DNA from: Candidatus Zambryskiibacteriota bacterium
Lineage (GTDB): Bacteria > Patescibacteriota > Minisyncoccia > Phycocordibacterales > WO2-35-19
DNA length: 64,000 nt
Assembly: GCA_043799105.1 (NCBI GenBank)
Contig: JAZDOB010000010.1
Location: forward strand, 10,516-74,515
Direction of reading: 5' to 3'
Part shown: piece after piece, positions 9,582 to 46,974 of the stretch
Layout: each line of letters opens with the position of its first letter
Numbering within the stretch: the first letter of the stretch is position 1
Notes under the pieces: generated by a model
Told to the model about the DNA's origin: nothing
The model's database searches: none
The model's input: only the letters and a program-made list of their open reading frames with translations
Position numbers and translations under genes: made by a program

Positions 9582-9583
9582 AA

Positions 9584-31266: not shown

Positions 31267-33071
31267 AGAATATGCCTCAAGAAACATCAAAAAAATCGCG
31301 GATTATTTCCTTTCTCAGACTTTACAATTATGGTTTTGGCAAATATAAGTGGCACATAGTTTTTTTGGCGATCTTGGGGTTGTTGGCGGGGTTGCTTGAA
31401 GGAATAGGTGTCAATGCTCTCATCCCACTTTTCTCTTTTATTGTTGGAAGCGGCAGTACGGGAGATGACATAATTTCAAAAACTATAGGAAAAGTATTCC
31501 AGTACACTCACGTGCCCTTTACACTGAAGTACCTACTTATCTTTATGTGTTTGCTTTTTATTCTTCGGGCAGTGGTTTCAATTGCCAGTGGTTATATCAG
31601 AGCCCGTATTGCCAGTGATTATTCCGAAAAGACCAGAAGCGATCTGTTTGCTAAAACTCTTAAAACTAAATGGTCCTATCTCTTAACTCAAAAAATGGGC
31701 CATCTACAGACCGTGCTCATGACCAATGTGTTTAACACAGAAGTGCTTCTGAGTCATATCTCCGGAGTAGTGATTATTGTAAGTAGTCTTGTCGTTTACA
31801 TGTTTATTGCCATAAACATATCAATGTCTACGACACTCTTTACTATTGCGGTGACTGGCGTCTTTTTTGTGGTGTTTAAACCGCTTATGTACAACACTAA
31901 AGTTGCCAATAATGAAATCGAAGGCCTCAACAGGACGGTGGCTCATTTTGTTAATGAAAACGTTCTGGGTATGAAGACAGTAAAAGTTATGCTGGCTGAT
32001 AATAAGGTGATTGATATCGGGAAAGGATATTTTCGGTCCTTGAAAGACCTGACTTCCAGAATTAACTTTTTAAGGGTTATTCCAGATTCGCTAATGCAGC
32101 CTTTTGGGATAATTTTTATAATGATTCTTTTTGCGATCTCCTACAAATTGCCCGGTTTTAACGTTGCCTCTTTTGCCGCAGTAGTTTATCTGATTCAACG
32201 TATATTCCTTTATTTTCAGCAATTACAAGCGAGTGCTCAAATGATAAACGATACGACTCCTTATTTAAGAACTCTTATAAAATTTGAACAGGAAGCAAAC
32301 TCGTTTGAAGAAAAATATCATGGTACAGAGGAGTTTTCTTTCAGTAAAGAACTTGAATTTAAAAATGTTTCTTTTTCGTATCAAAATAGCAAACCGATTT
32401 TAAATGGACTGAACTTTAGAATTAATCAGGGTGAGATGGTTGGACTCATCGGTCCGTCCGGCGCCGGCAAGACTACTATTGTGGATCTTATGCTTCGGCT
32501 TTTTGAACCGACGGGGGGAAATATTTTGGTTGACGGGCGGAATATTTTGGATATTGATTTACGTTCGTGGAGGGAAAATATAGGATATGTGTCGCAAGAT
32601 ATTTTTCTTATGAATGATACGATTGAGAACAATATAAGATTTTATAATTCTGATTTGAAAAATGAGGAATTGATTGAGGCTGCCAAGGCGGCAAATATCT
32701 ATGATTTCGTCGAAACCCTCAAAGAAGGTTTTAATACGATTATTGGAGATCGTGGTGTTACGCTTTCGGCTGGGCAGAGGCAAAGGATAGTAATTGCCAG
32801 GGTATTGGCTCGCAAACCACAGTTTCTTATCCTTGACGAAGCCACCAGCGCCCTTGATAATGAGTCTGAGGTTCAGATTCAAGAGGTCATCGAGAATCTA
32901 AAAGGGAAGATGACCGTTTTGGTGATCGCTCACAGACTTTCAACCATTACCAATGCCGACAAACTTCTGGCGCTTGATGGTGGTAAAATTGTTGAAGAAG
33001 GCAAACCCGAGGAACTCCTCAAAAACGAAGATTCTTATTTCTATAAAATAAATAACCTCAAAAATATATGA
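31260..33071 (+). CDS. ABC exporter, fused permease-ATPase (MsbA/lipid-glycan flippase-like)
   Basis: 6-TM N-terminal domain. Walker A GPSGAGKTT. ABC signature LSAGQRQRIVIARVL. Walker B ILDEATSALD. Confidence 0.85.
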   Translation: MVKNMPQETSKKSRIISFLRLYNYGFGKYKWHIVFLAILGLLAGLLEGIGVNALIPLFSFIVGSGSTGDDIISKTIGKVFQYTHVPFTLKYLLIFMCLLFILRAVVSIASGYIRARIASDYSEKTRSDLFAKTLKTKWSYLLTQKMGHLQTVLMTNVFNTEVLLSHISGVVIIVSSLVVYMFIAINISMSTTLFTIAVTGVFFVVFKPLMYNTKVANNEIEGLNRTVAHFVNENVLGMKTVKVMLADNKVIDIGKGYFRSLKDLTSRINFLRVIPDSLMQPFGIIFIMILFAISYKLPGFNVASFAAVVYLIQRIFLYFQQLQASAQMINDTTPYLRTLIKFEQEANSFEEKYHGTEEFSFSKELEFKNVSFSYQNSKPILNGLNFRINQGEMVGLIGPSGAGKTTIVDLMLRLFEPTGGNILVDGRNILDIDLRSWRENIGYVSQDIFLMNDTIENNIRFYNSDLKNEELIEAAKAANIYDFVETLKEGFNTIIGDRGVTLSAGQRQRIVIARVLARKPQFLILDEATSALDNESEVQIQEVIENLKGKMTVLVIAHRLSTITNADKLLALDGGKIVEEGKPEELLKNEDSYFYKINNLKNI

Positions 33072-34096
33072 AGACCGACAATATTTCAAAGACAGATTTT
33101 CTAAAGAATAAAACGGTTTTAATAACCGGAGGCACCGGTTCTTTCGGTAAAAATTTCGCCAAACATTTGCTTGAAAATTCCGATTTAAAAAAACTGATTA
33201 TTTTTAGCCGTGATGAGCTAAAGCAATTTAATATGAGTGCCGAAATAAAAGATGAACGGGTGCGATTTTTTTTGGGGGATATCCGGGATTTACCTCGTCT
33301 GGAGAGAGCTTTTAACGGTGTTGATATCGTAGTACATGCCGCAGCTCTCAAACAAGTGCCAATGCTTGAGTACAATCCTTTTGAAGCTGTAAAAACTAAT
33401 GTTTTAGGCAGTCAAAATGTTATTGATGCCGCCATAGATAAAAAAGTCAAAAAAGTAATTTTAGTTTCCAGTGACAAGGCGGCGCACCCCGTTAATCTTT
33501 ATGGTTCAACCAAACTTTGCGCCGAGAAGCTTTTTATCAGCGGGAATTCATATGCCGGGCAAAAAACAAGATTTAGCTGTGTCAGATACGGAAATGTGGT
33601 TGGCAGCCGCGGAAGTATTGTTGATATCCTTATCAATAATCCGAATATACCCACGGTCAATATAACTCACGAAGAGATGACCAGATTTTGGATTGGTCTG
33701 GATCAGACTTTTAAGTTGGTACTTTTCGCTTTGAAAAATATGATTGGCGGAGAAATATTTGTACCTAAAATTCCAAGCATGAAATTGGTCAATCTCTTTG
33801 ATTGTTTGGCGCCGAAAGCCAAGAAAGTTTTTATCGGTATTAGGCCCGGGGAGAAATTGCATGAAGTGCTTTTGACTGCCGAAGAGGCGCGCCATAGTTT
33901 TGAACTTCAAGGTTATTACGTTATTTTACCCGAATACTGTGAAATCTCCAGCGTAGAGAAAAAATTCAAAGGAATTCTTTCCAAAGCAAAAAAACTGCCA
34001 CCCGACTTTTCTTTTATGAGTCACACTAATAAAAATTGGCTGACAAATGAAGAACTTGCCAAGTTTATAGAAATTAAAAAGAAAAAACATAGTTAA
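33068..34096 (+). CDS. UDP-N-acetylglucosamine 4,6-dehydratase (PseB/FlaA1/CapD family)
   Basis: KTVLITGGTGSFGKNF…YGSTKLCAEKL… Size and motif pattern of inverting UDP-GlcNAc 4,6-dehydratases. Confidence 0.75.
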   Translation: MKTDNISKTDFLKNKTVLITGGTGSFGKNFAKHLLENSDLKKLIIFSRDELKQFNMSAEIKDERVRFFLGDIRDLPRLERAFNGVDIVVHAAALKQVPMLEYNPFEAVKTNVLGSQNVIDAAIDKKVKKVILVSSDKAAHPVNLYGSTKLCAEKLFISGNSYAGQKTRFSCVRYGNVVGSRGSIVDILINNPNIPTVNITHEEMTRFWIGLDQTFKLVLFALKNMIGGEIFVPKIPSMKLVNLFDCLAPKAKKVFIGIRPGEKLHEVLLTAEEARHSFELQGYYVILPEYCEISSVEKKFKGILSKAKKLPPDFSFMSHTNKNWLTNEELAKFIEIKKKKHS

Positions 34097-34104
34097 AAAT
34101 TTTT

Positions 34105-35205
34105 ATGATTCCATATGGCAAACAATCAATAGATGGCAAAGATATAAGAGCAGTTGAATCTGTCCTTAAATCGGATTGGCTCACTCAAGGGCCAAAAATT
34201 GCTGAATTTGAAAATGCCCTGGCTGATTATTGCGGAGCAAAGTTTGCAGTAGCTGTTTCTTCCGGCACTGTCGCACTTCATATCGCTTATCTTGCTTCTG
34301 GTCTGAAAGCTGGAGACGAAGTTGTCACAACCCCAAACACTTTTGTGGCTACCTCCAATATGCTTTTAGCCGTAGGTGCCAAACCAGTTTTTTGCGATAT
34401 TCACTCTGATACCTACAATATTGACGAAACAAAAATTGAAAAACTGATTACAAAAAAAACCAGAGCCATTGCGCCGGTGCATTTTGCAGGGATCCCTTGT
34501 GAAATGGACAAAATAATGAATATAGCAAGAAGACACAAACTCATTGTTATTGAAGATGCCTGCCATGCTTTAGGTGCAAAATATAAAAATAAAAAAATTG
34601 GCAGTATAGGCCATATGACCGTACTCAGTTTCCATCCGGTTAAATCAATTACCACTGGCGAAGGCGGGGCGATTTTAACCGACAATAAAAAATATTATGA
34701 GAGATTGAAATTATTAAGAAGCCATGGGATTTACAAAGATAAAAACGGAAAGAATATTATGACTGAAATGGGCTACAACTACAGGATAACTGATATACAG
34801 GCTTCCCTTGGCATTACTCAATTGAAAAAACTAGACAACTTCATTAAAAAAAGGAAACAAATTGTTTCTTGGTATAAGGAATTTTTACAGGACTGCAAGG
34901 AGATTATTCTTCCGGTGAACAATCCCGATTCTGCAAACCACATTTATATTATCAGAACTAAAAAAATAACGGACAGATTACCGCTCTATAATTTTCTGCG
35001 CAACGCAGGCGTTGGGGTCAATTTCCATTATCCAGCGGTTTATTCTCATCCTTATTACCAAAAGATTGGATATGCCGGTTTGAAATTGCCAATGGAGGAG
35101 GCTTATCAAAATTCTTGCGTCACTCTGCCTTGCTTCCCCGGTTTGTCTAGGGCTTTAATTAAACGAATAGCAAAATCAATAAATTCATTTTATGAATCCC
35201 GTTAG
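34105..35205 (+). CDS. DegT/DnrJ/EryC1/StrS-family PLP sugar aminotransferase (PseC/LegC-like)
   Basis: MIPYGKQSIDGKDIRAVESVLKSDWLTQGPKIAEFENALADYCGAKFAVAVSSGTVALHIA…SFHPVKSITTGEGG…. Confidence 0.8.
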   Translation: MIPYGKQSIDGKDIRAVESVLKSDWLTQGPKIAEFENALADYCGAKFAVAVSSGTVALHIAYLASGLKAGDEVVTTPNTFVATSNMLLAVGAKPVFCDIHSDTYNIDETKIEKLITKKTRAIAPVHFAGIPCEMDKIMNIARRHKLIVIEDACHALGAKYKNKKIGSIGHMTVLSFHPVKSITTGEGGAILTDNKKYYERLKLLRSHGIYKDKNGKNIMTEMGYNYRITDIQASLGITQLKKLDNFIKKRKQIVSWYKEFLQDCKEIILPVNNPDSANHIYIIRTKKITDRLPLYNFLRNAGVGVNFHYPAVYSHPYYQKIGYAGLKLPMEEAYQNSCVTLPCFPGLSRALIKRIAKSINSFYESR

Positions 35206-35241
35206 AAGTTAAGAGCTAATGGAATAAATAAAAACAAAAAT

Positions 35242-36681
35242 ATGAAAACTTCTAACGGGATGAAAAAAATTAAAATTTTAGCGATAAATGTTTGTCTGCG
35301 GCCAAGTAAGCCGCAAATTATGTTTCCTCTCGGCCTGGCCTATGTCTTAAGCGCCGTTCACCGAGCGGGCTATGATTTTGAATTGCTTGACTTGGATAAG
35401 GATAGAAAAAGCGACAAGGAGATTGAAAAGTTCTTGGCAGAAAAGGAGTTTGATGTAGTCGCTTTCGGTTGCATCGTGACTGGCTATAAAATGATAAAAA
35501 ATCTGAGCCGGATGGTAAGAAAAGCTAATAAGAAAGCCGTTATTATAGCCGGAAATTCCGTGGCCGACTCAATCCCGCGCATTCTTTTGTCAAAAACCGA
35601 AGTTGATGTGGCGGTAATAGGGGAAGGGGAGATAACTATTGTTGAAGTTTTAGATAGAATAAAAAATGGCAAGGCGCTTGACGGGGTTAAAGGAATTTGG
35701 TTTAAGCGCGGTGGAAAAATTTTTCAAAACCCAAACAGAGAAGCTATCAAAGATATAGATTCTATACCTTCACCCGTTTGGGATTTATTTGATATGGAAG
35801 CTTACATTAAAGGTTTCCAAGAGTTGATTAACGAACCTTTGCCTATGCCTAGAGAGCAGATTCGCTCTTTTTTGGTGAATGCGGCGAGAGGATGTCCGTT
35901 TCGTTGCACTTTTTGCTATCAAGTTTTTCAACATTATAATTACCGGCATCGTGGAGTGGATTCTATAATCAAAGAAATAAAAAAGTTGCAAAAAAAGTAC
36001 AAGATTAACTATATACTTTTTTGTGACGATCTATCTTTCCCTTCAAAGACTTTGCTTAAGGAATTTGTTGACAGAGTATTAAAAGAGAAATTAAAATTTT
36101 TTTGGACAGCTTCTTGTCGATCTGATTTATTCAATTCGGAAGAAGACGTGCCGTTGTTGAAACGAATAAAAAAATCAGGTTGCGAAGGCTTTGGTTTTTC
36201 TTTGGAATCGGCCAATAAAGAAATTCTAAAAGCCATGAATAAACATTTAGTTCCGGAAAATTTTGTCAGGCAAAAAAAATTGCTGGACAAGGCGGGCATA
36301 TCTTCATGGACAAGCTTAGTGCTTGGGTATCCAGAAGAAACAAAAAAAACCATAAAAGAGACTATGGATCTTTGTTACAAGTGCGACACCTATCCCAGTT
36401 CGGGTTATTTATTGCCCCAACCCGGAACGCCGATGTATAAGTATATATTTGATAAAGGCATAGCCAAAGACGAGGAAAAATATTTATTATCGCTTGGTGA
36501 TCGGCAAGATTTTAGGATTAATCTAACCAAGATGTCGGCAGAGGAATTTCAGGCAGAGGTAAAATATCACTTGTACCGGATTTCGAAAAAATTAAAGCTC
36601 GGTCTGGGTGAAGACAATCTTTTAAAGACGACCTCTTATAAAGGCATAACAGCAAAAAGAAGAGAAGAAGATAATAAATAA
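35242..36681 (+). CDS. B12-binding (class B) radical SAM enzyme, paralog 4
   Basis: KILAINVCLRPSKPQIMFPLGLAYVLSAVHRAGYDFELLDL. Radical SAM motif ARGCPFRCTFCYQ. Confidence 0.8.
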   Translation: MKTSNGMKKIKILAINVCLRPSKPQIMFPLGLAYVLSAVHRAGYDFELLDLDKDRKSDKEIEKFLAEKEFDVVAFGCIVTGYKMIKNLSRMVRKANKKAVIIAGNSVADSIPRILLSKTEVDVAVIGEGEITIVEVLDRIKNGKALDGVKGIWFKRGGKIFQNPNREAIKDIDSIPSPVWDLFDMEAYIKGFQELINEPLPMPREQIRSFLVNAARGCPFRCTFCYQVFQHYNYRHRGVDSIIKEIKKLQKKYKINYILFCDDLSFPSKTLLKEFVDRVLKEKLKFFWTASCRSDLFNSEEDVPLLKRIKKSGCEGFGFSLESANKEILKAMNKHLVPENFVRQKKLLDKAGISSWTSLVLGYPEETKKTIKETMDLCYKCDTYPSSGYLLPQPGTPMYKYIFDKGIAKDEEKYLLSLGDRQDFRINLTKMSAEEFQAEVKYHLYRISKKLKLGLGEDNLLKTTSYKGITAKRREEDNK

Positions 36682-36697
36682 AAGCTCATGCAATATA

Positions 36698-37249
36698 TTA
36701 ACGAGGATAAATCAGAATGTCTCCTTTGTCTGAGTATGCGATAATTTTTTTAATCTCATCAATAATCTTGAGGAAAGAGTTGTGAATTTTCCAGTCCTCG
36801 GGATTTCCAACTGCTACAAACCGAATCTCTTCCGGAAGGAATTTTCCCACGGTTCTTTTTACTCTGGGAATATGGTAAGTGCTAGTCACTATAACCAGAT
36901 TCTTAAAATCTTTAGTTAACGGATCAGTGATTAAAATTTCAAACTGCGTCTTGGTATTTATAACACCAAGTTTACTACCGTCCTGAAAATGGCATAGTTC
37001 TTTGGGAATGCCCGACTGCTCCATTTGAGCCAGCTTTTCGGCACGACTCTCGGTAGCCCCGCTGAAGATTACCGGTATGGGACGGCCCAAAACTTTGAGA
37101 ACATTTAGTCCGCATTTTATGCGGGAGATGTCTTCTTCCTTGGGGTCTAAAGCTCCCTGGAGAATAACAAGAGCATCCGCATCTTTTGGAATTATTGGCG
37201 GGTTCTTATACAAATCCTCAAATTCTTTTATAAGCTCAATTGTGTCCAT
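36698..37249 (-). CDS. DUF218 (YdcF/ElyC-like) protein, AT-rich paralog
   Basis: 183 aa. …LVIVTSTYHIPRVKRTVGKF… Clear paralog of the next gene with the same order of motifs. Confidence 0.6.
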   Translation of the reverse strand: MDTIELIKEFEDLYKNPPIIPKDADALVILQGALDPKEEDISRIKCGLNVLKVLGRPIPVIFSGATESRAEKLAQMEQSGIPKELCHFQDGSKLGVINTKTQFEILITDPLTKDFKNLVIVTSTYHIPRVKRTVGKFLPEEIRFVAVGNPEDWKIHNSFLKIIDEIKKIIAYSDKGDILIYPR

Positions 37250-37363: not shown

Positions 37364-37393
37364 AAGGTCGTCCCAAGAACACGGGACGACCTT
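37364..37393 (-). terminator. Intrinsic terminator of the GC-rich DUF218 paralog
   Basis: Perfect hairpin aaggtcgtccc-aagaacac-gggacgacctt, followed on the minus strand by a U-run. Confidence 0.6.
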
Positions 37394-37412: not shown

Positions 37413-37973
37413 TTAGGAGCGCGGGTGGGCTAGGATATCCCCCTTGGCCGAATACTTAACAATCCTCCCGATCTCACCCATAATCATCAGAAAACTGTTA
37501 CAGATATTCCAGTCTTCAGGGTCTGAAACCACCACAAACCTAGTTTGGGGCGGGAAAAACTTACCCGCTGTTCTCTTTGTCCTAGGGATATGATATGTGC
37601 TCGTTACGATCACCAAGTCTCTCATGTCCATAGTTGGGGGATTGCTGATTAATGCCCCAAACTGGGTCTTGGTATTGGCAACCCCTCGTTTTCCGCAATC
37701 CTGGAAGTGTGAGAGTGATTTTGGCACGCCGAGCTGCTCCATGAGCGCAAGCATCTCGGCCCGTTCCTCCGTTTCGCCACTGTAAATCACCGGAACCGGA
37801 TGGCCCAGGGTATTGAGAACATTCAACCCACACCTTATGCGGGATTCGTTCTCTTCCCTTGGCTCTACCGCCCCCGTTAGGATGACAATTCCATCGGTGC
37901 AGTTTGGTACAATTGGTGGGCTCTGCTTATATAAATCCTCGAACTCCCTCAAGAGTTCGATTTCTGTAACCAT
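37413..37973 (-). CDS. DUF218 (YdcF/ElyC-like) protein, GC-rich paralog
   Basis: 186 aa. …LVIVTSTYHIPRTKRTAGKF… Same family as 36698-37249 but encoded with visibly higher GC and different codon usage. Confidence 0.6.
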   Translation of the reverse strand: MVTEIELLREFEDLYKQSPPIVPNCTDGIVILTGAVEPREENESRIRCGLNVLNTLGHPVPVIYSGETEERAEMLALMEQLGVPKSLSHFQDCGKRGVANTKTQFGALISNPPTMDMRDLVIVTSTYHIPRTKRTAGKFFPPQTRFVVVSDPEDWNICNSFLMIMGEIGRIVKYSAKGDILAHPRS

Positions 37974-38089
37974 ACAGCCTCCTTTGGTTGTGGGGAAAAA
38001 TCTACCTGAATTTAGAACTTTGAATCTGGTAGTATTATAGCAAATCGTCAGATTTTGTCAAGTCGATAAAAACTACTATTTGTATTATC

Positions 38090-39010
38090 ATGACCGGGAT
38101 TATGGCTACTTTATTGAACAAACTAACATTAGGAACGGTTCAGTTCGGAATGGATTACGGCATCAATAATCCGAACGGCAAGCCATCTTTGGAAAAGTCC
38201 TTGGAAATGCTGGATTTTGCTTGGGCTAAAGGCATAAGAATTTTTGATACGGCCTATAATTATGGCGAGGCGGAAGAAATTTTAGGAGAATTTGTAAAAA
38301 CTCGTAATCCGGGGGCGGAAATGAAAATTATCACCAAACTGAAGCCCAATATTTTGTCCGAAGAACAGGGCAGAACATCCGACATTATTGAAAATAATTT
38401 AAAGGCTTCTTTAAAGCGACTAAATAGGGATTATGTTGACGGGTATCTTTTTCACACTCCGGCGTACATATATAACAAAGAAGCTGTTGAGGCAATGATT
38501 AGTTTAAAAAAGAAAGATTTGGTTAAAAATATCGGGGTTTCCATTTATGAAGAAAAAGACGCTGTTTATGCCGCCAAAATAAAAGAGTTTGATTACATAC
38601 AAGTTCCATACAGCATATTTGACCAGCGAGTAGATAGAGTTGGTTTTTTTGAAATCGCCAGGAAAAACAATATAAAGGTTTTTGCTCGCAGCGCTTTCTT
38701 GCAGGGTTTATTTTTTATGCCTGAAGACAAAATCCCGTCTCATTTGGAAATCGCCAAGCCTTATTTCAAGAAATTTGACGAGATTATAGGCAAATACGGT
38801 TTGTCCAGACAACAGGTGGCAGTATTGTTTACTCACAAAAATGAAGCCATAAATCATTTGGTTTTCGGGGTAGACAATTTGGAACAACTGAAAGAAGATA
38901 TAGAAATTGCCGAAAGAAATATGGATTGCGAAGATTGTCTCAAAGAGTTAAGGGAGAATTTTATAAACGTTGAGAAAAGCATAATCTTTCCCAGTTTATG
39001 GAAAAAATAA
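38090..39010 (+). CDS. Aldo/keto reductase family oxidoreductase
   Basis: …LGTVQFGMDYGINNPNGKPSLEKSLEMLDFAWAKGIRIFDTAYNYGEAEEILG…. Confidence 0.8.
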   Translation: MTGIMATLLNKLTLGTVQFGMDYGINNPNGKPSLEKSLEMLDFAWAKGIRIFDTAYNYGEAEEILGEFVKTRNPGAEMKIITKLKPNILSEEQGRTSDIIENNLKASLKRLNRDYVDGYLFHTPAYIYNKEAVEAMISLKKKDLVKNIGVSIYEEKDAVYAAKIKEFDYIQVPYSIFDQRVDRVGFFEIARKNNIKVFARSAFLQGLFFMPEDKIPSHLEIAKPYFKKFDEIIGKYGLSRQQVAVLFTHKNEAINHLVFGVDNLEQLKEDIEIAERNMDCEDCLKELRENFINVEKSIIFPSLWKK

Positions 39011-39780
39011 AAAACCTTTGTATCATACAGGCCAGAATGAATTCTGCTCGTCTACCGGGTAAGATTTTGATGAAAATAGGGGACAAAACCATTCTTGAGT
39101 ATGTTATAACCAGAGTAAAGCAAGCTAAAAATATAGACAAAATTGTCGTGGCTACTACCGACCGGAAGGAGGACGATGCTACAGAAAATATTTGTAAAAA
39201 AATTGGCGTCGATTGTTTTCGCGGTTCCGAAAATGACGTACTTGACCGATTTTATCAGACAGCCAAAAAATATGAAGCTGATACAATCATCCGAATTACC
39301 GGCGACTGCCCCTTGCTTCCCCCGGAAGTGATTGAACAGCTCTTGAATAAATTTAATGAAGGCAATTTTGGTATAGTTTCGAGCGGGCCTTCGTTTGCGG
39401 AAGGTTTTGACTGTGAGATTTTTTCTTTTAAGATGCTTGAAGTGGCTCATAAGAACGCTTCCAAGGTTTCGGAGCGTGAGCATGTTACTTTGTATCTTCA
39501 CACTCATCCGGAAGTTTGCAAAAAATGCGCGGTGGAAAATAAAACCGATGACAGCAAATATAGAGTGGTGGTTGACGAACCCGGAGATTTCACTGTTGTT
39601 AAAACAATTATAGAAAATTTTTATCCTCAAAATCCAAATTTCACAATTGATGATATCAAAAAATTTTTAGACCAGCATCCTGAAATAACCCAAATAAATA
39701 ATGACATCATTAGAAATGAAGGGCTCATAAAATCTTTAGCGGTAGAAAAAAATCAAGGCAAAAAATCCCATGAAAAATAA
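38998..39780 (+). CDS. Cytidylyltransferase (acylneuraminate/pseudaminate cytidylyltransferase, NeuA/PseF/SpsF-like)
   Basis: …NLCIIQARMNSARLPGKILMKIGDKTILEYVITR…IVVATTDR…: CMP-NeuAc-synthetase-like N-terminal pattern. Confidence 0.7.
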   Translation: MEKIKNLCIIQARMNSARLPGKILMKIGDKTILEYVITRVKQAKNIDKIVVATTDRKEDDATENICKKIGVDCFRGSENDVLDRFYQTAKKYEADTIIRITGDCPLLPPEVIEQLLNKFNEGNFGIVSSGPSFAEGFDCEIFSFKMLEVAHKNASKVSEREHVTLYLHTHPEVCKKCAVENKTDDSKYRVVVDEPGDFTVVKTIIENFYPQNPNFTIDDIKKFLDQHPEITQINNDIIRNEGLIKSLAVEKNQGKKSHEK

Positions 39781-40828
39781 AACTATAAAAATTGGAAATA
39801 AAATAATTGCAGAAAATATGCCAGCATTTATTGTTGCTGAAATGTCGGGCAATCACAATCAGGACATAAATAGAGCCTTCGCTATTATTGATGCTGCGGC
39901 TTCAGCCGGAGCAGATGCTGTCAAACTCCAAACCTACACTCCGGAGACCATAACCATTGACGCGAACAACAAGCATTTTGTCATCAAGAGTCCAAATAAG
40001 GATTGGAATGGTAAAACTCTCTTTGGGTTGTATGGAGAGGCTTACACTCCGTGGGATTGGCAGCCGAAACTGAAAAAGTACGTAGAAAGCAAGGGTTTGA
40101 TTTGTTTTTCCACCCCATTTGACGATACCGCGGTTGATTTTTTGGAAAAAATGAAAGTTGGAGTTTATAAGGTTGCTTCTCCGGAAGTGGTGGACATACC
40201 TCTCTTGGAGCGTATAGGCAAAACCAGAAAACCGGTTATCATGTCCAGAGGCATGGCTACCATTTCCGAAATAAAACTGGCGCTAAAAACCCTTAGAGAA
40301 AACGGTTGCTCACAAGTGATTATACTTCAATGTGTGAGCGCTTATCCCGCCAAAGCAGAGGATATGAATCTTCTTACTATCTCGGACATTGAAAAGCGTT
40401 TTAAAACCATAGCTGGTCTCTCCGACCACAGTTTGACGACGGATATTGCGGTGGCGGCCGTGGCTTTAGGTGCGAAAGTTATTGAGAAGCATTTGACGCT
40501 GAAACGTTCTGATGGCGGACCGGACGCTGCCTTCTCGCTTGAGCCGGATGAATTCAAAAAAATGGTGGAAGCTATTAGAGTCGTAGAAAAAGCAGTTGGC
40601 AAACCTTTCTACGGATCCAAGAAAGGGGTAGGTGAAAATATTATGGGCAGAAAATCTTTGTTTGTTGTTAAAGATGTTAAAGCCGGAGAAAAATTTACCA
40701 GAGAAAACCTCAAATCAATACGGCCTGGCTACGGTTTGGAGCCGAAATATTACAGAAAGGTTTTAGGAAAGCTGGCGGCAAAAAATATTAGCAGGGGAAC
40801 GCCATTAAAATTAAATATGATCATATGA
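39770..40828 (+). CDS. Nonulosonic acid synthase (NeuB/PseI/LegI family) with C-terminal SAF domain
   Basis: …IIAENMPAFIVAEMSGNHNQDINRAFAIIDAAASAGADAVKLQTY… plus C-terminal SAF-like …GRKSLFVVKDVKAGEKFTRENLKSIRPGYGL. Confidence 0.85.
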   Translation: MKNKTIKIGNKIIAENMPAFIVAEMSGNHNQDINRAFAIIDAAASAGADAVKLQTYTPETITIDANNKHFVIKSPNKDWNGKTLFGLYGEAYTPWDWQPKLKKYVESKGLICFSTPFDDTAVDFLEKMKVGVYKVASPEVVDIPLLERIGKTRKPVIMSRGMATISEIKLALKTLRENGCSQVIILQCVSAYPAKAEDMNLLTISDIEKRFKTIAGLSDHSLTTDIAVAAVALGAKVIEKHLTLKRSDGGPDAAFSLEPDEFKKMVEAIRVVEKAVGKPFYGSKKGVGENIMGRKSLFVVKDVKAGEKFTRENLKSIRPGYGLEPKYYRKVLGKLAAKNISRGTPLKLNMII

Positions 40829-42015
40829 AGAAAAAATTAATGTCTGTGGGTGCCGGTCCTTTTCAAAAGAAAGGCATTGAAACTGCCAGAAAAATGGGCT
40901 TATATGTGATTGCTACCGATATGGACCCCAAAGCTGCCGGATTTTCCAGTGCCGATAAATCATATACAGTCGATGTTCGCGATGCGGAAAAAAATCTTAA
41001 AATCGCCAAAGCGGAAAAAATAAACGGGGTGATAGCCATAGCTTCCGATGTAAGCGTCATGACGGTTGCCACCGTAAATAAAGCACTTGGATTGGCAGGA
41101 ATTAATCCCGATGTAGCCGAACGCTGTATTGACAAGGAGCTGATGAGAAAAGCTTTCGTCGCTGGCGGAGTGCCGGCGCCAAAATTCTTCGGCATCCACA
41201 ATCTTGAAGAGTTGATGGAAAAATCCAAGTTGGTTAAATTTCCGGTTGTAGTCAAACCGGCCGATAGCGCCGGCAGCCGGGGAGTACAAAAGGTGGAGCG
41301 GCCGGAAGATTTGCCGAGGGCTTATGAAAAGGCAATCGGATATTCTCATAAGAAAAAGCTGGTTTTGGAAGAATTCATGGAAGGAGTGGAAGTGAGCGTT
41401 GAAGCCATGGTAGTAGGAGGAAAAATACACATAATGGCTTTGTCCGATAAAATAAGAACTGAGCCGCCATATCTCTTGGATATTCAGATAACTTTCCCTT
41501 CCGCTTATCCTAAAAAAGTTCAGGAGAAAATTATTTATGTGGCGAAACGGGCCATAAAAGCAGTCGGCGTTACGACCGGCCCCATACACATGGAACTTAT
41601 GATGACTCCGAATGGCCCGGTGCCGGTGGAACTTGCCGCCCGAGGCCCCGGCTTCAAGATTTTTTCAGATATTATCCCGATGGTTACCGGTATAGATGTC
41701 ATGAAAGCCGCCATTGATTTAGTTATGGGCAACAGGCCGAAACTGAGGCACACCAGAAAAAAATCCTCCACAATAAAATTTCTCTCGGCCATTGCCGGTA
41801 CGGTCAAATCAATCAAAGGAGTTGAAGAAATAAGAAAAATGAAAGGTATTTATGAGATTGAAATGTATGTAAAGCCGGGAGACAAAACCAAAGCTTTAAC
41901 CAGCGGCTCGGAAAGAATCGGCCACATCATATCTTTTGCTTCCACCCGCAAGGAATCAGTGAACGTTATCAATAAGGCTGTTAAAAAATTGAATGTAGAA
42001 ATTATTCCCGACTAA
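40825..42015 (+). CDS. ATP-grasp domain protein (carboxylate-amine ligase, likely glycan/nonulosonate modification)
   Basis: Pre-ATP-grasp and ATP-grasp layout (…KFPVVVKPADSAGSRGVQKV…LEEFMEGVEVSVEAMVVGGK…). Confidence 0.65.
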   Translation: MKKKLMSVGAGPFQKKGIETARKMGLYVIATDMDPKAAGFSSADKSYTVDVRDAEKNLKIAKAEKINGVIAIASDVSVMTVATVNKALGLAGINPDVAERCIDKELMRKAFVAGGVPAPKFFGIHNLEELMEKSKLVKFPVVVKPADSAGSRGVQKVERPEDLPRAYEKAIGYSHKKKLVLEEFMEGVEVSVEAMVVGGKIHIMALSDKIRTEPPYLLDIQITFPSAYPKKVQEKIIYVAKRAIKAVGVTTGPIHMELMMTPNGPVPVELAARGPGFKIFSDIIPMVTGIDVMKAAIDLVMGNRPKLRHTRKKSSTIKFLSAIAGTVKSIKGVEEIRKMKGIYEIEMYVKPGDKTKALTSGSERIGHIISFASTRKESVNVINKAVKKLNVEIIPD

Positions 42016-42016
42016 A

Positions 42017-42643
42017 ATGAACACTAAGGACAAAAAAATAATCATTGAAAGATACAAAAACCGCTTTAAAGAACACGGCATAAATGTCAAAGCTTTAGCT
42101 TCGGGAAATACAGAACGCCAGAGAATGAGATTTAAAGTCTTGAGCGAAGTTGGCAATCTGGAAGACCAGATTATTTTGGACATAGGATGCGGATTTGGCG
42201 ATTTTTACGCTTATCTCAAAGAGCAAGGCATAAAAGCTAAATATGTCGGCTTAGATATCTGCCCTCCTTTTATTGATGTCTGCAAAGAACGTTTTCCAGA
42301 GGCGCGTTTTGAGGTTGGTGATATTGAAAATTCAGTTCCCAAAGGAAAATTTGATTACATTATTTCCTCCCAGACCTTCAACAACAAACTTCAGTTTGGT
42401 GACAACGAAAAAGTCATACGAAATATCATTAAAAAAGGTTATAAAATATGCGAGAAGGGTATGGCCATAGATATGCTCACCAAATACGTTGATTTTGAAG
42501 AACCCCATCTGCACTATTATAGTCCGGAAGAAATTTTTACATTTTGTAAAAAACTTACCAAACGGGTCACACTCCGCCATGACTATCCTCTTTATGAATT
42601 TATGATTTATCTTTATAAAGACTTTAAGGGCTGGAAATCCTAA
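42017..42643 (+). CDS. Class I SAM-dependent methyltransferase
   Basis: ILDIGCGFGDFYAYL (motif I). Confidence 0.7.
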   Translation: MNTKDKKIIIERYKNRFKEHGINVKALASGNTERQRMRFKVLSEVGNLEDQIILDIGCGFGDFYAYLKEQGIKAKYVGLDICPPFIDVCKERFPEARFEVGDIENSVPKGKFDYIISSQTFNNKLQFGDNEKVIRNIIKKGYKICEKGMAIDMLTKYVDFEEPHLHYYSPEEIFTFCKKLTKRVTLRHDYPLYEFMIYLYKDFKGWKS

Positions 42644-42662
42644 AAACAAAAACCGCTAAATT

Positions 42663-43568
42663 ATGCAAACAATTTACTTGACACTTACCGTAGACCTGGA
42701 CCCCGATAATTTTGACGCTTCGATATTTGGCAAGGTGGATAAAATGTCGTGGAAAGGAATAGATGAAGGTTTACCGCCTTTTCTGGAAAAAATTGAAAAT
42801 CTCAAAGACTCATTTGGCAGTAAACCTTTGATTACTTGGTTTGTCAGAGCAGATAAGGAATTGTTTGATGTTTATGGTGATTATAATTATCTTTTAGGCC
42901 GCTATTCTGATTTTTTAAACAGACGATTAAAAGCTGGAGATGAAATAGGCTGGCATCCTCATGAAAATAAAATGAAAGATTTAATTTCTGCTCATGAAGC
43001 TCTCAAGCCCATCGATAAAAATTTTGTTTCGGTTCGTGTGGGCAATTCTTTTCATAACAATGATTTTATGCACGCTTTCTCAAAGTGGGGATTTAAAGTA
43101 GACAGCACAGCCTTACCGGGCAGAATCAGGAGCGACAAAGAACGTATTTTAGATTGGCGAGAAACTCCGGAGAAACCATATTTCCCGTCTGCTTCCGATT
43201 ACCGTTTGTCGGGTGGGGATTCCAGCGAAATTCTTGAGGTTCCTTTTTCAATGATTGAAACTCAAAGCAGTGAAGATCAAAAACCCATAAAAAGATATTT
43301 AAATTTGTCTTATGAGCATAATTTAATACAAAATTCACTTCGCTCTTTAATTGCCGAAAAGCAGTTGCTTGTTTCCATTGTTCACCCTTCGGAACTTTTG
43401 GACAAACAACCCAAGCACTCCATTATCGCTTTTGGTACTGATATAGCGACCAAAAATCTGGCTTTTATTTTGAAAGAAGCAGAAACTTATGACAAAAAAA
43501 TAAAATTTACGACAATGAAAGAAACAGGAGAACTGGTTAACCAAAAAATTATTTCTTATGCCAAATAG
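42663..43568 (+). CDS. Hypothetical protein (possible polysaccharide deacetylase/carbohydrate-esterase-like fold)
   Basis: …LTVDLDPDN…GWHPHEN… is weakly NodB-like. No firm assignment. Confidence 0.3.
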   Translation: MQTIYLTLTVDLDPDNFDASIFGKVDKMSWKGIDEGLPPFLEKIENLKDSFGSKPLITWFVRADKELFDVYGDYNYLLGRYSDFLNRRLKAGDEIGWHPHENKMKDLISAHEALKPIDKNFVSVRVGNSFHNNDFMHAFSKWGFKVDSTALPGRIRSDKERILDWRETPEKPYFPSASDYRLSGGDSSEILEVPFSMIETQSSEDQKPIKRYLNLSYEHNLIQNSLRSLIAEKQLLVSIVHPSELLDKQPKHSIIAFGTDIATKNLAFILKEAETYDKKIKFTTMKETGELVNQKIISYAK

Positions 43569-44664
43569 AACAAACAAAAAAATACTTGAACAAAAATTGG
43601 CTGAAATGCACGGCCGTCGGCACTGTCTTTTTGTTAGTCGGGCTACGGTAGCCATTTATCTGGCACTCAAATCTTTGGGCCACAAAAACGGGAAAGTAGT
43701 TATACCTTCTTTGGTATGTTTGAGTGTTCCTAATGCGGTTATTTACAGCGGGCTTAAGCCGATTTACTGTGACGTTAGTCTCAAGGATTTTAATATTGAT
43801 TTAAATAAGCTTGAAAAAATCTTAAGCGAAGAAAAAAATATACGAGTGGTAATAGTTCCTCATATGTATGGACATCCGACAAATATGAATCGCCTTATGT
43901 CTCTGGCAAATAAATTCAAAGTGGCTGTTATAGAAGATGTCGCCCAAGCCATGGGGGGTGATTTCCGGGGAAAAATTTTGGGCTCGTTTGGAGACTTCTC
44001 GGTGTTGAGTTTTGGCCACACCAAAATCATAGAAACTTCTGGCGGGGGAGCGCTTCTCTTTGATAAAGACGAATATAAAGAAAAAATAATCGAAACAGAA
44101 AAAGAACTTGCTTTGCTGAAGCAAAATAAAAAACTTGCAGAAATTTATTCGGAAACATATTATGCTCTTATGCCGCTTGCTCGCAAGCAAAAATCTCTAG
44201 CAGCTCTTTTTTCATCATTTCCTTATATTTTCAAAGACCTCTATCTTTTTGGCAGTTTTGATAATAACGTTATTCCCGGAATTTATAAAAAATTGTCAGA
44301 AATTAAAGATGCAGTTTCCAAAAGAAACAAAAATGCCAGATATTACAAAGAACATCTCATCCATCCCGCTATTGTCCACCCAGACTACAAGGGAAACGGA
44401 GTGTCTTGGAGATACAGCTTCCTTATAAAAGGCGATAAGCAGCAAGAAATTGCCAATGCTATAAGAAAAAAGGGCATAGACATAAGCAACTGGTATCACC
44501 CTGTCCATTTGATGTATGAATTTAATCATCCCAAACTAAAGAATGCCGAATACATAGGGGACCACATTTTCAATCTTTGGGTTTTACCCACGCTGACCAA
44601 AAAAGAATTAAAGAAGAATTCGGATGCTGTACTTAAAGTTCTTAATAGCCAACACTTTAAATGA
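43558..44664 (+). CDS. DegT/DnrJ-like PLP-dependent sugar aminotransferase/dehydratase (divergent)
   Basis: …LAEMHGRRHCLFVSRATVAIYLALKSLG…VVIPSLVCLSVPNAVIYSGLKPIYCDV…SFGHTKI…. Confidence 0.6.
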   Translation: MPNRTNKKILEQKLAEMHGRRHCLFVSRATVAIYLALKSLGHKNGKVVIPSLVCLSVPNAVIYSGLKPIYCDVSLKDFNIDLNKLEKILSEEKNIRVVIVPHMYGHPTNMNRLMSLANKFKVAVIEDVAQAMGGDFRGKILGSFGDFSVLSFGHTKIIETSGGGALLFDKDEYKEKIIETEKELALLKQNKKLAEIYSETYYALMPLARKQKSLAALFSSFPYIFKDLYLFGSFDNNVIPGIYKKLSEIKDAVSKRNKNARYYKEHLIHPAIVHPDYKGNGVSWRYSFLIKGDKQQEIANAIRKKGIDISNWYHPVHLMYEFNHPKLKNAEYIGDHIFNLWVLPTLTKKELKKNSDAVLKVLNSQHFK

Positions 44665-45677
44665 AAACAAATATAATCAAAGCGGCAGATAAGGATTTTA
44701 AAAAATTGTGGCTATCACTACGATCATCGGATCAGACCGAGTATCCTCAGTACTCATTTTTGGATATTGACTATTCCATAGAATATTTTTCCAGTTCGGT
44801 CTCTGAAAATTTTTCTTTTATTATCACAAATGATAGCGTGCCTATTATGGGTGTCATAATTGCTGGAATGATTAACCAAGACAAAAAAAGGGAACTCTCG
44901 GGATTTGGAAGGCCGATTTTTTGTATTGAAAATAGAAAAAATGAAAATTTTGATATTGATGAGGTTAAATCTTTGTTTAAGGAAGAATTAAATAAAGTTA
45001 TTGAAAAATTTCAGCCTGATAAAATAATTTTTAGAAATTTTGGTGATAGTTTATCGCTGATGGGTAGATTTCTTTTGGATATGGGGGCACAAATTTCTCC
45101 TCAATTTACAAATGTCATAGACTTGTCTCTTCCCGAGGCAAAGCTTAAATACAATTTGAGACACAGTTATCGCAGTCTTATAAATTGGGGCCTTAAAAAT
45201 CTAAAAATAGAAATTATTGATTCTAAAAACATTAGTGAAGAAAAAATGGAAGCTTTTAGGAAATTGCACATAGAAGTGGCTGGCAGAGAAACCCGTTCAA
45301 AAAAAACCTGGCAATATCAACTTGAAATGATTAAAAACAAAGAAACTTTCGCCATTTTTGGGTATTTGGGTGAAGAATTGGTGACTGCTGCCCTGTTTGA
45401 ATATAGCTCAAAATATTGTTTTTACGGGGTTTCCGCCTCAAAAAGGGAATTGTTTGACAAGCCTATGAGCCACGCTTTAATTTGGACCGCTATTCTCTAT
45501 GCTAAAAAAATCGGCTGCATTTTTTTTGAGACAGGCAAACAATTTTTTCCTTATCACAAACAATCCATAAAAATATCAAATAAAGATTTTGGGATAAGCA
45601 CTTTCAAAAGAGGTTTCGGTGGGGAAATATTTATCCGTAATAATATAATCTGGGAAAAAAATGAAGAACAAAAATAG
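44661..45677 (+). CDS. Hypothetical protein (possible GNAT/FemAB-like acyltransferase fold)
   Basis: No strong motif; secondary pattern is weakly FemAB/GNAT-like. Operon position is inside the sugar-modification block. Confidence 0.3.
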   Translation: MKTNIIKAADKDFKKLWLSLRSSDQTEYPQYSFLDIDYSIEYFSSSVSENFSFIITNDSVPIMGVIIAGMINQDKKRELSGFGRPIFCIENRKNENFDIDEVKSLFKEELNKVIEKFQPDKIIFRNFGDSLSLMGRFLLDMGAQISPQFTNVIDLSLPEAKLKYNLRHSYRSLINWGLKNLKIEIIDSKNISEEKMEAFRKLHIEVAGRETRSKKTWQYQLEMIKNKETFAIFGYLGEELVTAALFEYSSKYCFYGVSASKRELFDKPMSHALIWTAILYAKKIGCIFFETGKQFFPYHKQSIKISNKDFGISTFKRGFGGEIFIRNNIIWEKNEEQK

Positions 45678-46974
45678 CGGACAAAAATTGTGGGAAAAAG
45701 CCAAAAAAATTATTCCTGGCGGTAATCAGTTGCTGTCAAAGAGGGCGGAAATGTTTTTGCCTGATGGCTGGCCGGCTTATTACAAAAAGGCCAAGGGCAT
45801 TGAGGTGACCGATTTGGATGGGAAGAAATATTTGGATTTTTCACTTATGGGAGTGGGCTCGTGTATTCTCGGTTACGCTGACCCTGATATAAATAAAGCT
45901 GTAAAAAAAGCTATTGATGACGGCTCTATGTCTACTCTGAATTGCCCGGAAGAAGTGGAACTTGCTGAAAAACTGCTCGCTCTTCATCCATGGCCTGGAA
46001 TGGTCAGGTTTGCCAGGACAGGAGGGGAGGCCAATGCTATAGCCCTGAGGATTGCTAGAGTATATAGCGGAAAAGACAAGGTAGCGTTTTGTGGTTATCA
46101 CGGTTGGCATGATTGGTATCTTTCCAGTAATTTGGCATCGGATGAAAATTTAGACGGGCATTTGTTGCCTGGCTTGGAGCCCAAAGGAGTGCCCCGTGGC
46201 CTCCTTGAAACGGCTTTGCCTTTCCGTTACAACCATTTGGAAGAACTTGAGGCCATAGTCAAAAGACACGACATAGGAGTTATTTTTCTTGAAGCTATCC
46301 GACATGATGAACCGGAGAATAATTTTTTGGAAAGAGTTAGAAAAATCGCTTCACGTATCGGAGCAGTACTTATATTTGATGAAGTTTCTTCCGGTTTTCG
46401 CGATCGATTAGGTGGCGCTTATACTCGTTTTGGCGTAGAACCTGACATGGTGGTTTATGGTAAAGCTCTTGGTAATGGTTTTCCTATTACAGCTATTGTG
46501 GGCAGAAAAGAAATAATGGATGCAGCACAGAAAACTTTTATAAGCAGTACGCTTTGGACCGAAAGGATTGGGCCGGTTGCGGCTCTGGCTGTTATGAAAA
46601 AATTCAAGAAAGAAAACGTAGCTTCTTACATAAAAACCATCGGAGCTGAAATTGGTAAAGGTTGGAGAGAACTGGCTAAAAAGCACGGCTTGAATATTGA
46701 TGTCCATGGTCCGGAATATGTTATCAACTTTGCTTTTAATTATGATAATGCCCAAGAATTAAAAACCTTATTCATTCAAGAGATGTTGGATCTTGGTTTC
46801 TTATCCACCAATTTGGTCTATGTCACTTTTGCCCATAAAAAATCTCACGTTAAAAATTATCTCAAAGCCGTGGATAAAGTTTTTGGCATACTGAAAACAG
46901 CTATTAATAAAAATGATGTCAAAAGCCGTTTGCGCGGACCGGTAGCTCACACAGGTTTCCATAGATTGACTTAG
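45661..46974 (+). CDS. Class III PLP aminotransferase (glutamate-1-semialdehyde aminomutase-like)
   Basis: …AKKIIPGGNQLLSKRAEMF…GIEVTDLDGKKYLDF…DEVSSGFR…: GSA-aminomutase-family pattern. Confidence 0.75.
   Translation: MKNKNSGQKLWEKAKKIIPGGNQLLSKRAEMFLPDGWPAYYKKAKGIEVTDLDGKKYLDFSLMGVGSCILGYADPDINKAVKKAIDDGSMSTLNCPEEVELAEKLLALHPWPGMVRFARTGGEANAIALRIARVYSGKDKVAFCGYHGWHDWYLSSNLASDENLDGHLLPGLEPKGVPRGLLETALPFRYNHLEELEAIVKRHDIGVIFLEAIRHDEPENNFLERVRKIASRIGAVLIFDEVSSGFRDRLGGAYTRFGVEPDMVVYGKALGNGFPITAIVGRKEIMDAAQKTFISSTLWTERIGPVAALAVMKKFKKENVASYIKTIGAEIGKGWRELAKKHGLNIDVHGPEYVINFAFNYDNAQELKTLFIQEMLDLGFLSTNLVYVTFAHKKSHVKNYLKAVDKVFGILKTAINKNDVKSRLRGPVAHTGFHRLT

Follow-up and report, generated by a model that had tools for sequence, protein, structure and literature searches.

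The present analysis concerns a gene block at positions 33068–46974 of a 64 kb stretch of DNA, hereafter called the window, which represents a part of a genome of probably about 1 Mb. The source is a metagenome-assembled genome of Candidatus Zambryskibacteria, which belongs to the Parcubacteria/Patescibacteria, that is, to the candidate phyla radiation (CPR); the window proteins P0001, P0060 and P0064 show 100% identity to proteins from such a genome. The block encodes a cytidine monophosphate (CMP)-nonulosonate pathway of the pseudaminic acid (Pse) type, in which the canonical enzymes PseG, PseH and PseF are probably replaced by unrelated proteins, among them two DUF218 proteins. A first-pass annotation, made from the letters alone, had described the block as the core of a CMP-nonulosonate pathway with additional tailoring enzymes in a bacterium with a small genome; the family assignments support the former statement, and the source organism shows the latter guess to be right.

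The block contains 15 open reading frames (ORFs), of which 13 lie on the plus strand and two on the minus strand (36698–37249 and 37413–37973). Its bounds, the start of the first ORF at 33068 and the end of the last ORF at 46974, are identical to those given in the first-pass annotation. Protein families were assigned using the Pfam and NCBIfam profiles, which bore out each family named earlier, and equivalog status was judged by the curated cut-offs of NCBIfam; functions beyond the family assignment were deduced from the gene context throughout. Between 38090 and 46974, neighboring ORFs overlap or leave gaps of no more than 19 nt, which is consistent with a single operon. No tRNA and no Rfam element was found within the window. 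The loci used for comparison, denoted by L numbers, extend about 10 kb to each side.

Core Enzymes of the Pathway

Three enzymes of the block exceeded the cut-offs of the Pse models. PseB, the inverting uridine diphosphate (UDP)-GlcNAc 4,6-dehydratase (33068–34096, plus strand), scored 444.1 bits against TIGR03589, the cut-off of which is 407.75 bits. PseC, the UDP-4-amino-4,6-dideoxy-beta-L-AltNAc transaminase of the DegT family (34105–35205, plus strand), scored 443.2 bits against TIGR03588 (cut-off 423.5), and PseI, the pseudaminic acid synthase consisting of NeuB and SAF domains (39770–40828, plus strand), scored 452.1 bits against TIGR03586 (cut-off 340.25). The model of the neuraminic acid (Neu) synthase, NeuB_NnaB (TIGR03569), gave 314 bits on PseI, which is below its cut-off of 399.65, and the legionaminic acid (Leg) models LegB (TIGR04180) and LegC (TIGR04181) gave 58 and 264 bits against cut-offs of 475 and 420, respectively. 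Because PseB, PseC and PseI lie above the equivalog cut-offs and the Leg and Neu models lie below theirs, the core of the pathway is, by profile, of the Pse type, and a Leg or Neu pathway is ruled out by the curated cut-offs. Running the Pse, Leg and Neu models on the ORFs, a check that had been proposed together with the first-pass annotation, thus settled the earlier ambiguity between pseudaminic and legionaminic acid in favor of Pse.

Absence of PseG, PseH and PseF from the Window

No match to a PseG of the TIGR03590 type was found in the 64 kb by tblastn with the PseG-like proteins of loci L001, L006 and L007, the best family of which is TIGR03590, and a domain-trimmed hidden Markov model (HMM) of 45 PseG members found nothing in the six-frame translation of the window. 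An HMM of PseH-like GNAT proteins, built from related loci, gave nothing in the six-frame translation at E ≤ 10, and none of the window ORFs scanned matched the Acetyltransf family of Pfam. In L086, the closest relative of the window, the domain HMM did not find a PseH-like GNAT either. The PseF model (TIGR03584) reached 26.3 bits on the cytidylyltransferase of the window against a cut-off of 205.7. The earlier observation that no obvious PseG or PseH equivalents are seen was borne out over the 64 kb by tblastn and the domain HMMs, and the pathway variant is non-canonical, as had been suspected, in that PseG, PseH and PseF are replaced or absent by profile.

DUF218 Proteins as Proposed Substitutes for PseG

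The two minus-strand ORFs encode DUF218 proteins. DUF218a (36698–37249), a cytoplasmic YdcF-like protein and proposed UDP-sugar hydrolase, scored 27.4 bits against PF02698, just below the cut-off of 27.6, and its paralogue DUF218b (37413–37973) scored 32.4 bits, above this cut-off. The two proteins are 65% identical, both are soluble, and both are annotated as PF02698 in the database. The GC content of DUF218b is 0.50, with 0.58 at the third codon positions, where the neighbors have about 0.38 and DUF218a has 0.41. Consensus scans placed a sigma-70-type promoter match (TTGACA-16-TG-TATAAT, 12/12) upstream of DUF218b at 38034–38061 and an intrinsic-terminator-like hairpin of 12 pairs followed by a T run directly after its stop at 37364–37393, both on the minus strand. 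DUF218b looks like a recently acquired and independently expressed second copy. Elsewhere in the window, within the glycan island described below, a 193-aa ORF on the minus strand (13229–13810) has no Pfam match and gave a very weak match to an HMM of DUF218 (E 1.4e-4), which may be noise or may point to a strongly diverged third gene of the DUF218 type.

The clade of the window DUF218 proteins is very small; of 5.8 billion proteins, 13 belong to it at E ≤ 1e-3. A second, distantly related clade, first met in the Saccharibacteria locus L004 and in L088, has 63 homologues, several of which are labelled as CPR (Peribacteria, Kaiserbacteria and Paceibacterota). The genomic contexts of both clades (the window, L004, L084, L085, L086, L088 and L167–L171) lie in 11 of 11 cases inside Pse clusters without a PseG domain. 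L172, with a more distant DUF218, is outside any Pse cluster. As for the gene order, L086 has PseB-PseC-DUF218-AKR-CT-PseI-ATP-grasp and onwards on a single strand, where AKR and CT denote an aldo/keto reductase and a cytidylyltransferase, respectively. L084 shows the order PseB-PseC-…-PseI-GNAT-DUF218, and L085 combines a core of the L084 type with AKR, CT and a class-III aminotransferase. L169 shows PseB-…-PseC-AT3-CT-AKR-DUF218-GNAT-PseI-ABC-Wzy_C/TPR, the Peribacteria locus L168 shows DUF218-GNAT-PseI, and L170 and L171 show DUF218-PseI-GNAT. L168 also carries a 76-aa NeuB fragment (9774–10004) immediately upstream of DUF218 besides the full-length PseI, which is probably a remnant of a rearrangement.

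In L167, DUF218 and GNAT are joined in one protein (9339–10433), giving the order PseC-[DUF218-GNAT fusion]-PseI. The proteins P0088, P0089 and P0124 are such fusions, with DUF218 at the N-terminus and GNAT at the C-terminus; they are 364–366 aa long and are encoded directly upstream of PseI. Nearly half of the sampled PseG proteins (21 of 45) are themselves PseG-GNAT fusions with the same N-to-C order.

The co-occurrence was assessed with 80 metagenomic loci, retrieved with the PseI alignment and pooled with the earlier loci. Among the 24 loci containing PseB, PseC and PseI, PseG alone was found in 16, DUF218 alone in six, both in none and neither in two, which gives a Fisher p of 2e-4, a value inflated by shared ancestry. 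Both solutions are found within CPR, since the Uhrbacteria locus L001 has PseG and lacks DUF218. The AKR and the class-III aminotransferase were also considered as substitutes for PseG and were rejected, as both co-occur with PseG in L001, L006, L007, L137–L140 and L152.

PseI requires a free reducing hexose, and a step that removes UDP is therefore obligatory. Because this step is obligatory and, in minimal clusters such as L169, no conserved gene other than DUF218 is left unassigned, we infer that DUF218 has taken the place of PseG as a non-orthologous substitute. The DUF218 genes, which had earlier been regarded as bystanders, are both probable members of the pathway according to this comparative evidence.

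The conservation of single residues is a supporting detail: in both clades, R43, H126 and R129 do not vary at all, and T122 hardly does. SanA cannot do without its Thr/His/Glu triad (PMC12176290), of which the Thr and the His are present in the DUF218 alignment. YdcF was reported to have an adenine-nucleotide-alpha-hydrolase-like fold and to bind S-adenosylmethionine (SAM), and the E. coli DUF218 proteins influence the balance between peptidoglycan and enterobacterial common antigen, with no enzymatic activity known (PMC12176290). The AlphaFold2 (AF2) model of DUF218a has a mean confidence (pLDDT) of 91.6, and Foldseek returned weak Rossmann-like matches only, with SAM-dependent O-methyltransferases at the top (E ~3e-3), followed by halves of GT9 enzymes and FAD synthetase. 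The profile of the DUF218 alignment found neither YdcF nor any other informative match among the PDB sequences. The modelled fold would thus neither favor nor disfavor a role as a hydrolase.

Tailoring Cassette

Directly downstream of PseI, an ATP-grasp ligase of the L-amino-acid-ligase type is encoded (40825–42015, plus strand; ATP-grasp_4 and LAL_C2), for which an N-acylating role is proposed. Its matches in the PDB are L-amino-acid ligases and BacD. The closest homologues, with 35–62% identity, are all located in Pse clusters of five phyla, often directly after PseG or PseI; the clusters with close homologues come from Saccharibacteria, Victivallales, Planctomycetales, a deltaproteobacterium and Lachnospiraceae. 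The ligase gene is followed by genes for a class I SAM-dependent methyltransferase (42017–42643, plus strand; Methyltransf_25/31/11) and for a 301-aa protein (42663–43568, plus strand).

The first-pass annotation had called this 301-aa ORF esterase-like. The ORF is present, but no Pfam (including PF01522 at E ≤ 1e-3), NCBIfam or PDB sequence match was obtained for it, and the predicted fold is that of a CE4/NodB deacylase, so that the protein is described here as a CE4/NodB-fold N-deacylase-like protein. The AF2 model (pLDDT 94.6) matched in Foldseek the HP0310 deacetylase (3qbu) at 2.8e-6 and ArnD (8t0j) at 4e-6, followed by chitin deacetylase and WbmS. Both H98 and H100 are fully conserved and D11 almost so, which would correspond to an Asp/His/His metal-site pattern.

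The next gene encodes DegT2, a second pyridoxal phosphate-dependent enzyme of the DegT family (43558–44664, plus strand; PF01041, 9.7e-50) with a divergent C-terminal domain, which retains the catalytic Lys, as its SFGHTK aligns with SFYPTK of 7b0d. It is followed by a FemAB-like protein with a double GNAT fold, the proposed substitute for PseH (44661–45677, plus strand). This protein matched TIGR04421 (FemAB_IMCC1989) over its full length with an E-value of 1.8e-41 and 142.5 bits, below the cut-off of 250, and the L086 orthologue scored 138 bits; it is, as judged by these scores, a relative of TIGR04421 and not a member. What had been listed as a possible GNAT/FemAB-like ORF is FemAB-like by this match below the cut-off. 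Orthologues are present in L001 (annotated Acetyltransf_6) and L086, and no match was found among the PDB sequences.

The cassette is conserved in synteny in the Uhrbacteria locus L001, with 57% identity for the ATP-grasp ligase, 67% for the methyltransferase, 47% for the CE4-like protein and 50% for DegT2, and all four are also present in L086. As in the window, L086 carries the FemAB-like protein together with an ATP-grasp ligase having the L-amino-acid-ligase C-terminal domain. An HMGL-like aldolase is encoded in L086, L001, L004 and L007, and a class I/II aminotransferase in L086 and L004 as well; the window has neither, and this set could build an unusual acid in the relatives. From these families, the chemistry of the cassette, to which the FemAB-like protein may contribute, is probably an exchange of N-acyl groups by de-N-acetylation and ATP-dependent re-acylation with an amino acid or other acid, followed by methylation.

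Several related CPR Pse clusters carry WbuX together with HisH/HisF-like genes, an N-acetyl sugar amidotransferase set (L084 5316–7812, L004 14635–17848 and L170 1217–1933), which predicts an acetamidino-Pse there. Because the window lacks this set, the relatives would differ in their N-acyl decoration.

A B12-binding radical SAM enzyme, probably of the methyltransferase type (35242–36681, plus strand; B12-binding and Radical_SAM of Pfam), is encoded between PseC and the DUF218 genes. It reached no NCBIfam equivalog cut-off and has no counterpart in the related clusters, including the closest relative, L086.

Cytidylyltransferase, Aldo/Keto Reductase and Class-III Aminotransferase

The operon-like part of the block begins with the AKR gene (38090–39010, plus strand; PF00248, 6.1e-41), which overlaps the CT gene (38998–39780, plus strand; CTP_transf_3, 2.3e-37) by 13 nt. 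The CT is of the SpsF/EpaA-N type, its best PDB match is 6oew (4.7e-46), and no second cytidylyltransferase was found among the window ORFs scanned. It is presumed to be the CMP-Pse synthetase, which is supported by the presence of CT-type proteins in canonical PseB/C/G/H/I loci that have no AKR. In L088 (6929–8491), CT and AKR are fused into one protein of 520 aa, whereas in the window the genes are separate and overlapping and have the opposite order. The block ends with a class-III aminotransferase resembling glutamate-1-semialdehyde (GSA) aminomutase (45661–46974, plus strand; PF00202, 3.6e-42), which scored 263 against the cut-off of 486 for PRK06209.

The class-III aminotransferase co-occurs with AKR in at least 13 loci, and in the sampled loci the partner of AKR is usually this aminotransferase and not a short-chain dehydrogenase/reductase (SDR). 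Because the pairing of AKR and aminotransferase is seen with PseG and with DUF218 alike, the trio of AKR, CT and class-III aminotransferase is regarded as an independent module. In prophages of A. baumannii, EpaA, which consists of CTP_transf_3 and Aldo_ket_red domains, and the SDR EpaB convert Pse5Ac7Ac into its 8-epimer, as demonstrated by complementation and NMR (PMC12053666), and a Vibrio Pse cluster with a CT-AKR fusion has been noted earlier (PMC7371886). No EpaB-type SDR partner was found within the block at 33068–46974, and a search of a phage collection for EpaA-like proteins with the AKR as the query returned only unrelated AKRs of about 25% identity.

Glycan Island and Export Genes

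The block is part of a glycan island of about 45 kb (roughly 4–50 kb), which contains many glycosyltransferases of the GT1, GT2 and GT4 families, several methyltransferases and four B12-binding radical SAM genes. A 500-aa KpsS/KpsC-like protein (27943–29445, minus strand), with a weak Capsule_synth match (E 5e-5), is a candidate CMP-Pse glycosyltransferase, and its homologues flank the Pse clusters of L085 (72% identity), L084 (51%), L004 and L086. Upstream of the block, a DNA-binding protein of the HTH_17/excisionase type (30928–31266, plus strand; HTH_17, 9.4e-10) is a candidate regulator and has an 81%-identical counterpart at the matching position in L086. It lies just upstream of the gene for an MsbA/PglK/HepA-like ABC exporter (31260–33071, plus strand; ABC_tran and ABC_membrane), a probable flippase for a lipid-linked glycan, which scored below the cut-offs of the HepA, MsbA and PglK models. 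The stop of this gene overlaps the start of PseB, and the exporter adjoins PseB or PseI in L084–L086, L088 and L169.

Downstream of the block, a radical SAM/SPASM enzyme identified by profile (47076–48134, plus strand) is followed by a terminator-like site (48244–48269) and by a Wzy_C membrane protein with C-terminal TPRs (48310–50508, plus strand; PF04932, 1.2e-19), a probable glycan ligase or O-oligosaccharyltransferase. Homologues of the latter follow the Pse clusters of L084, L085, L088 and L168–L171, where they are usually followed by SecA. The order of Pse cluster, Wzy_C/TPR protein, (MurB) and SecA is observed in the window (48310–53472), L085, L168, L169 and L171. Because this order recurs in several CPR lineages, the glycan locus would occupy a conserved chromosomal position near secA. 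The gene set suggests that the glycan is built on a lipid carrier, flipped by the ABC exporter and then joined to an acceptor by the Wzy_C/TPR protein. As to the pili or S-layer named in the first-pass annotation as possible targets, the context offers no more than an ABC flippase, a Wzy_C/TPR ligase-like protein and many glycosyltransferases. No Maf-type flagellin transferase was found among the ORFs scanned against Pfam. A flagellin glycosylation island was rejected, given that the scanned ORFs include neither Maf nor flagellar genes and that the context consists of glycosyltransferases, an ABC flippase and a Wzy_C protein.

The B12-binding radical SAM genes of the window are located at 7903–9339, 19934–21472, 29447–30928 (minus strand) and 35242–36681. 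Neither these four nor the SPASM gene reaches an NCBIfam equivalog cut-off; the set suggests radical C-methylation or another unusual sugar modification in a CPR glycan. A 571-aa ORF (2426–4141), which follows a DUF4015 glycosyl-hydrolase-like gene on the left border of the island, shows weak matches to TrwB/TraG, VirD4-like coupling proteins (E 9e-5 and 5e-4). An IS200-like Y1 transposase (60746–61393, minus strand; PF01797, 3e-10) adjoins gatB, and a glycogen-type set downstream of SecA (54889–59341), consisting of a GT5/GT4 synthase-like gene, GH57 and GH15, is unrelated to the Pse block.

Proposed Pathway and Alternative Interpretations

In the proposed pathway, PseB would convert UDP-GlcNAc into the 4-keto-6-deoxy-L-sugar and PseC would aminate it at C4, both steps being assigned by profile. 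One or both of the cytoplasmic DUF218 proteins would then remove UDP, which is the job of PseG. The FemAB-like and/or the ATP-grasp enzyme, either of which could acylate the 4-amino group, would act in place of the GNAT PseH, so that the product would probably carry a non-acetyl, possibly aminoacyl, group. PseI, a step assigned by profile as well, would condense the freed hexose with phosphoenolpyruvate (PEP), and the SpsF/EpaA-type cytidylyltransferase would form the CMP-sugar. By analogy with the epimerization at C8 by EpaA and EpaB, the AKR and the class-III aminotransferase would modify the nonulosonate, speculatively by a redox reaction followed by transamination; a keto intermediate may be aminated because the transaminase stands in the place of the EpaB dehydrogenase. 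The CE4-fold deacylase, the ATP-grasp ligase and the SAM methyltransferase would carry out N-acyl exchange and methylation. Finally, the KpsS/C-like transferase would use the sugar, the ABC exporter would flip the lipid-linked glycan and the Wzy_C/TPR protein would attach the glycan.

The replacement of PseG, PseH and PseF by unrelated proteins in a Pse-type CMP-nonulosonate pathway is assigned a probability of roughly 0.6. The more specific proposal, that the CPR DUF218 proteins are nucleotide-sugar hydrolases replacing PseG and that the trio, together with the deacylase, the ATP-grasp ligase and the methyltransferase, leads to an undescribed derivative of Pse in which an amino-acyl substituent is added or exchanged, is tentative and falls slightly short of an even chance.

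Several points weigh against the replacement and the chemistry proposed for it. The proposed roles are based on sequence and context, those of the AKR and the class-III aminotransferase on analogy only. The DUF218 genes of the window lie on the opposite strand, and DUF218b is apparently a recent arrival. The weak methyltransferase matches in Foldseek together with the SAM binding of YdcF make a non-hydrolase role of DUF218 possible. The DUF218 loci represent two clades only, and the exclusion statistic is inflated by this kinship; furthermore, L112 and L159, which contain PseB, PseC and PseI, have neither PseG nor DUF218. Two further points, that the tailoring genes may act on another sugar and that PseG or PseH genes could be located elsewhere in a genome of which only a part is visible, underlie the first two of the alternatives considered below.

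The alternative that survives best is that the core makes plain Pse and that the ATP-grasp ligase, the methyltransferase, the CE4-like protein, DegT2, the FemAB-like protein and the class-III aminotransferase decorate another sugar, for example, a perosamine-type N-acylated 4-amino-4,6-dideoxyhexose. The ATP-grasp/CE4-like pair is also found in a dTDP-amino-sugar cluster without Pse genes (L002/L003), distant relatives of the ATP-grasp ligase generally adjoin DegT aminotransferases in many phyla, the best PDB matches of DegT2 include perosamine synthetases, and a GDP-mannose 4,6-dehydratase is encoded upstream of the block (22117–23154). However, the restriction of the closest ATP-grasp homologues to Pse clusters in all five phyla is difficult to reconcile with this alternative, as is the translational coupling of the cassette to PseI through the overlaps and short gaps of 38090–46974, and the window lacks a PseH to complete plain Pse5Ac7Ac. 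A separate sugar as the target of the cassette is therefore considered unlikely, and its action on the Pse-type product is preferred.

The second alternative is an ordinary Pse pathway with PseG and PseH encoded outside the window, where the DUF218 proteins would be SanA/ElyC-like factors of the envelope or lipid carrier, or SAM-binding tailoring enzymes. The envelope effects of the E. coli DUF218 proteins, which are without a known enzymatic activity (PMC12176290), the SAM-dependent methyltransferases at the top of the weak Foldseek matches of DUF218a, the opposite strand with its own promoter and terminator, and the partial view of the genome all agree with it. Yet it leaves unexplained why PseG and DUF218 are found together in none of the 24 loci, why independent CPR lineages have DUF218 between PseC or AKR on one side and GNAT-PseI on the other, and why there are fusions of DUF218 with a PseH-like GNAT that follow the N-to-C order of PseG-PseH; in addition, SanA and ElyC have a membrane anchor, which is missing from the window DUF218 proteins. 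An ordinary pathway completed elsewhere is accordingly rated as quite unlikely, and the replacement of PseG by DUF218 is preferred. A different stereoisomer of the 5,7-diamino-nonulosonate (the legionaminic, 8-epi-Pse or acinetaminic type) is improbable: AKR and CT together have the domain content of EpaA, which yields 8-epi-Pse, and the cytidylyltransferase resembles SpsF of the B. subtilis sps genes, which reportedly make legionaminic acid, but LegB, LegC and NeuB_NnaB stay far below the cut-offs that PseB, PseC and PseI pass, and Pse would remain the precursor of any 8-epi or 8-amino product, which would refine the replacement reading instead of displacing it.

Novelty and Implications

Earlier work has described the Pse pathway itself and has noted, and in part characterized, CT-AKR proteins. 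What appears to be new is DUF218 in the place of PseG, the version without PseH that has FemAB-like and ATP-grasp enzymes, and the AKR/CT/class-III aminotransferase trio, all in CPR. In the literature searched, no paper links Pse or nonulosonic acids with CPR/Patescibacteria, none links Pse with DUF218, and none relevant to triamino nonulosonates was found.

If the proposed role is correct, the DUF218 domain would for the first time have an enzymatic activity assigned to it, and by implication sugar-diphosphate linkages, either nucleotide- or undecaprenyl-linked, would be the targets of SanA, ElyC and YdcF. DUF218 is widespread and includes these envelope-integrity proteins, and the case of the PseG slot offers a defined substrate for an in vitro assay. 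Environmental Pse clusters commonly carry the as yet uncharacterized AKR/CT/class-III aminotransferase trio, for which the EpaA/EpaB case provides a handle. The analysis also indicates that, in CPR bacteria whose genomes measure about a megabase, a large island is given over to an elaborate surface glycan with a bacterial mimic of sialic acid, which bears on how CPR episymbionts present themselves to hosts and phages.

Comparison with Known Systems

The canonical CMP-Pse pathway of Campylobacter jejuni and Helicobacter pylori proceeds through PseB, PseC, PseH, PseG, PseI and PseF, of which PseB, PseC and PseI are common to the window. The logic is also common, leading from UDP-GlcNAc to a 2,4-diamino-2,4,6-trideoxy-L-altrose derivative, followed by the condensation with PEP and the activation with CMP. 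In contrast to the canonical pathway, the window has neither a PseG with the GT-B fold nor a GNAT PseH, and the PseF model stays below its cut-off; the corresponding slots would be filled by DUF218, a FemAB-like or ATP-grasp enzyme and an SpsF-type cytidylyltransferase, respectively.

SanA, ElyC and YdcF of E. coli share the Pfam family PF02698 with the window DUF218 proteins. However, SanA and ElyC are membrane-anchored with periplasmic domains, whereas the window proteins are small and cytoplasmic and are encoded inside a nucleotide-sugar pathway. The predicted 301-aa protein shares the fold and the pattern of one Asp and two His residues with ArnD (8t0j), HP0310 (3qbu) and WbmS (3hft), but the identity to these proteins is only 10–14% and the TM-score is about 0.5.

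The flagellin of Clostridium botulinum is said to carry an N-methyl-glutamyl legionaminic acid. The ATP-grasp ligase and the SAM methyltransferase of the window would fit a comparable N-methyl-aminoacyl group, although the backbone here is Pse. In the EpaA/EpaB system of the A. baumannii prophages (PMC12053666), the two domains of EpaA are those also found in the window CT and AKR, the comparison being one of architecture only. The window differs from this system in that the AKR gene precedes the CT gene and that the partner, in the place of the SDR EpaB, is a class-III aminotransferase.

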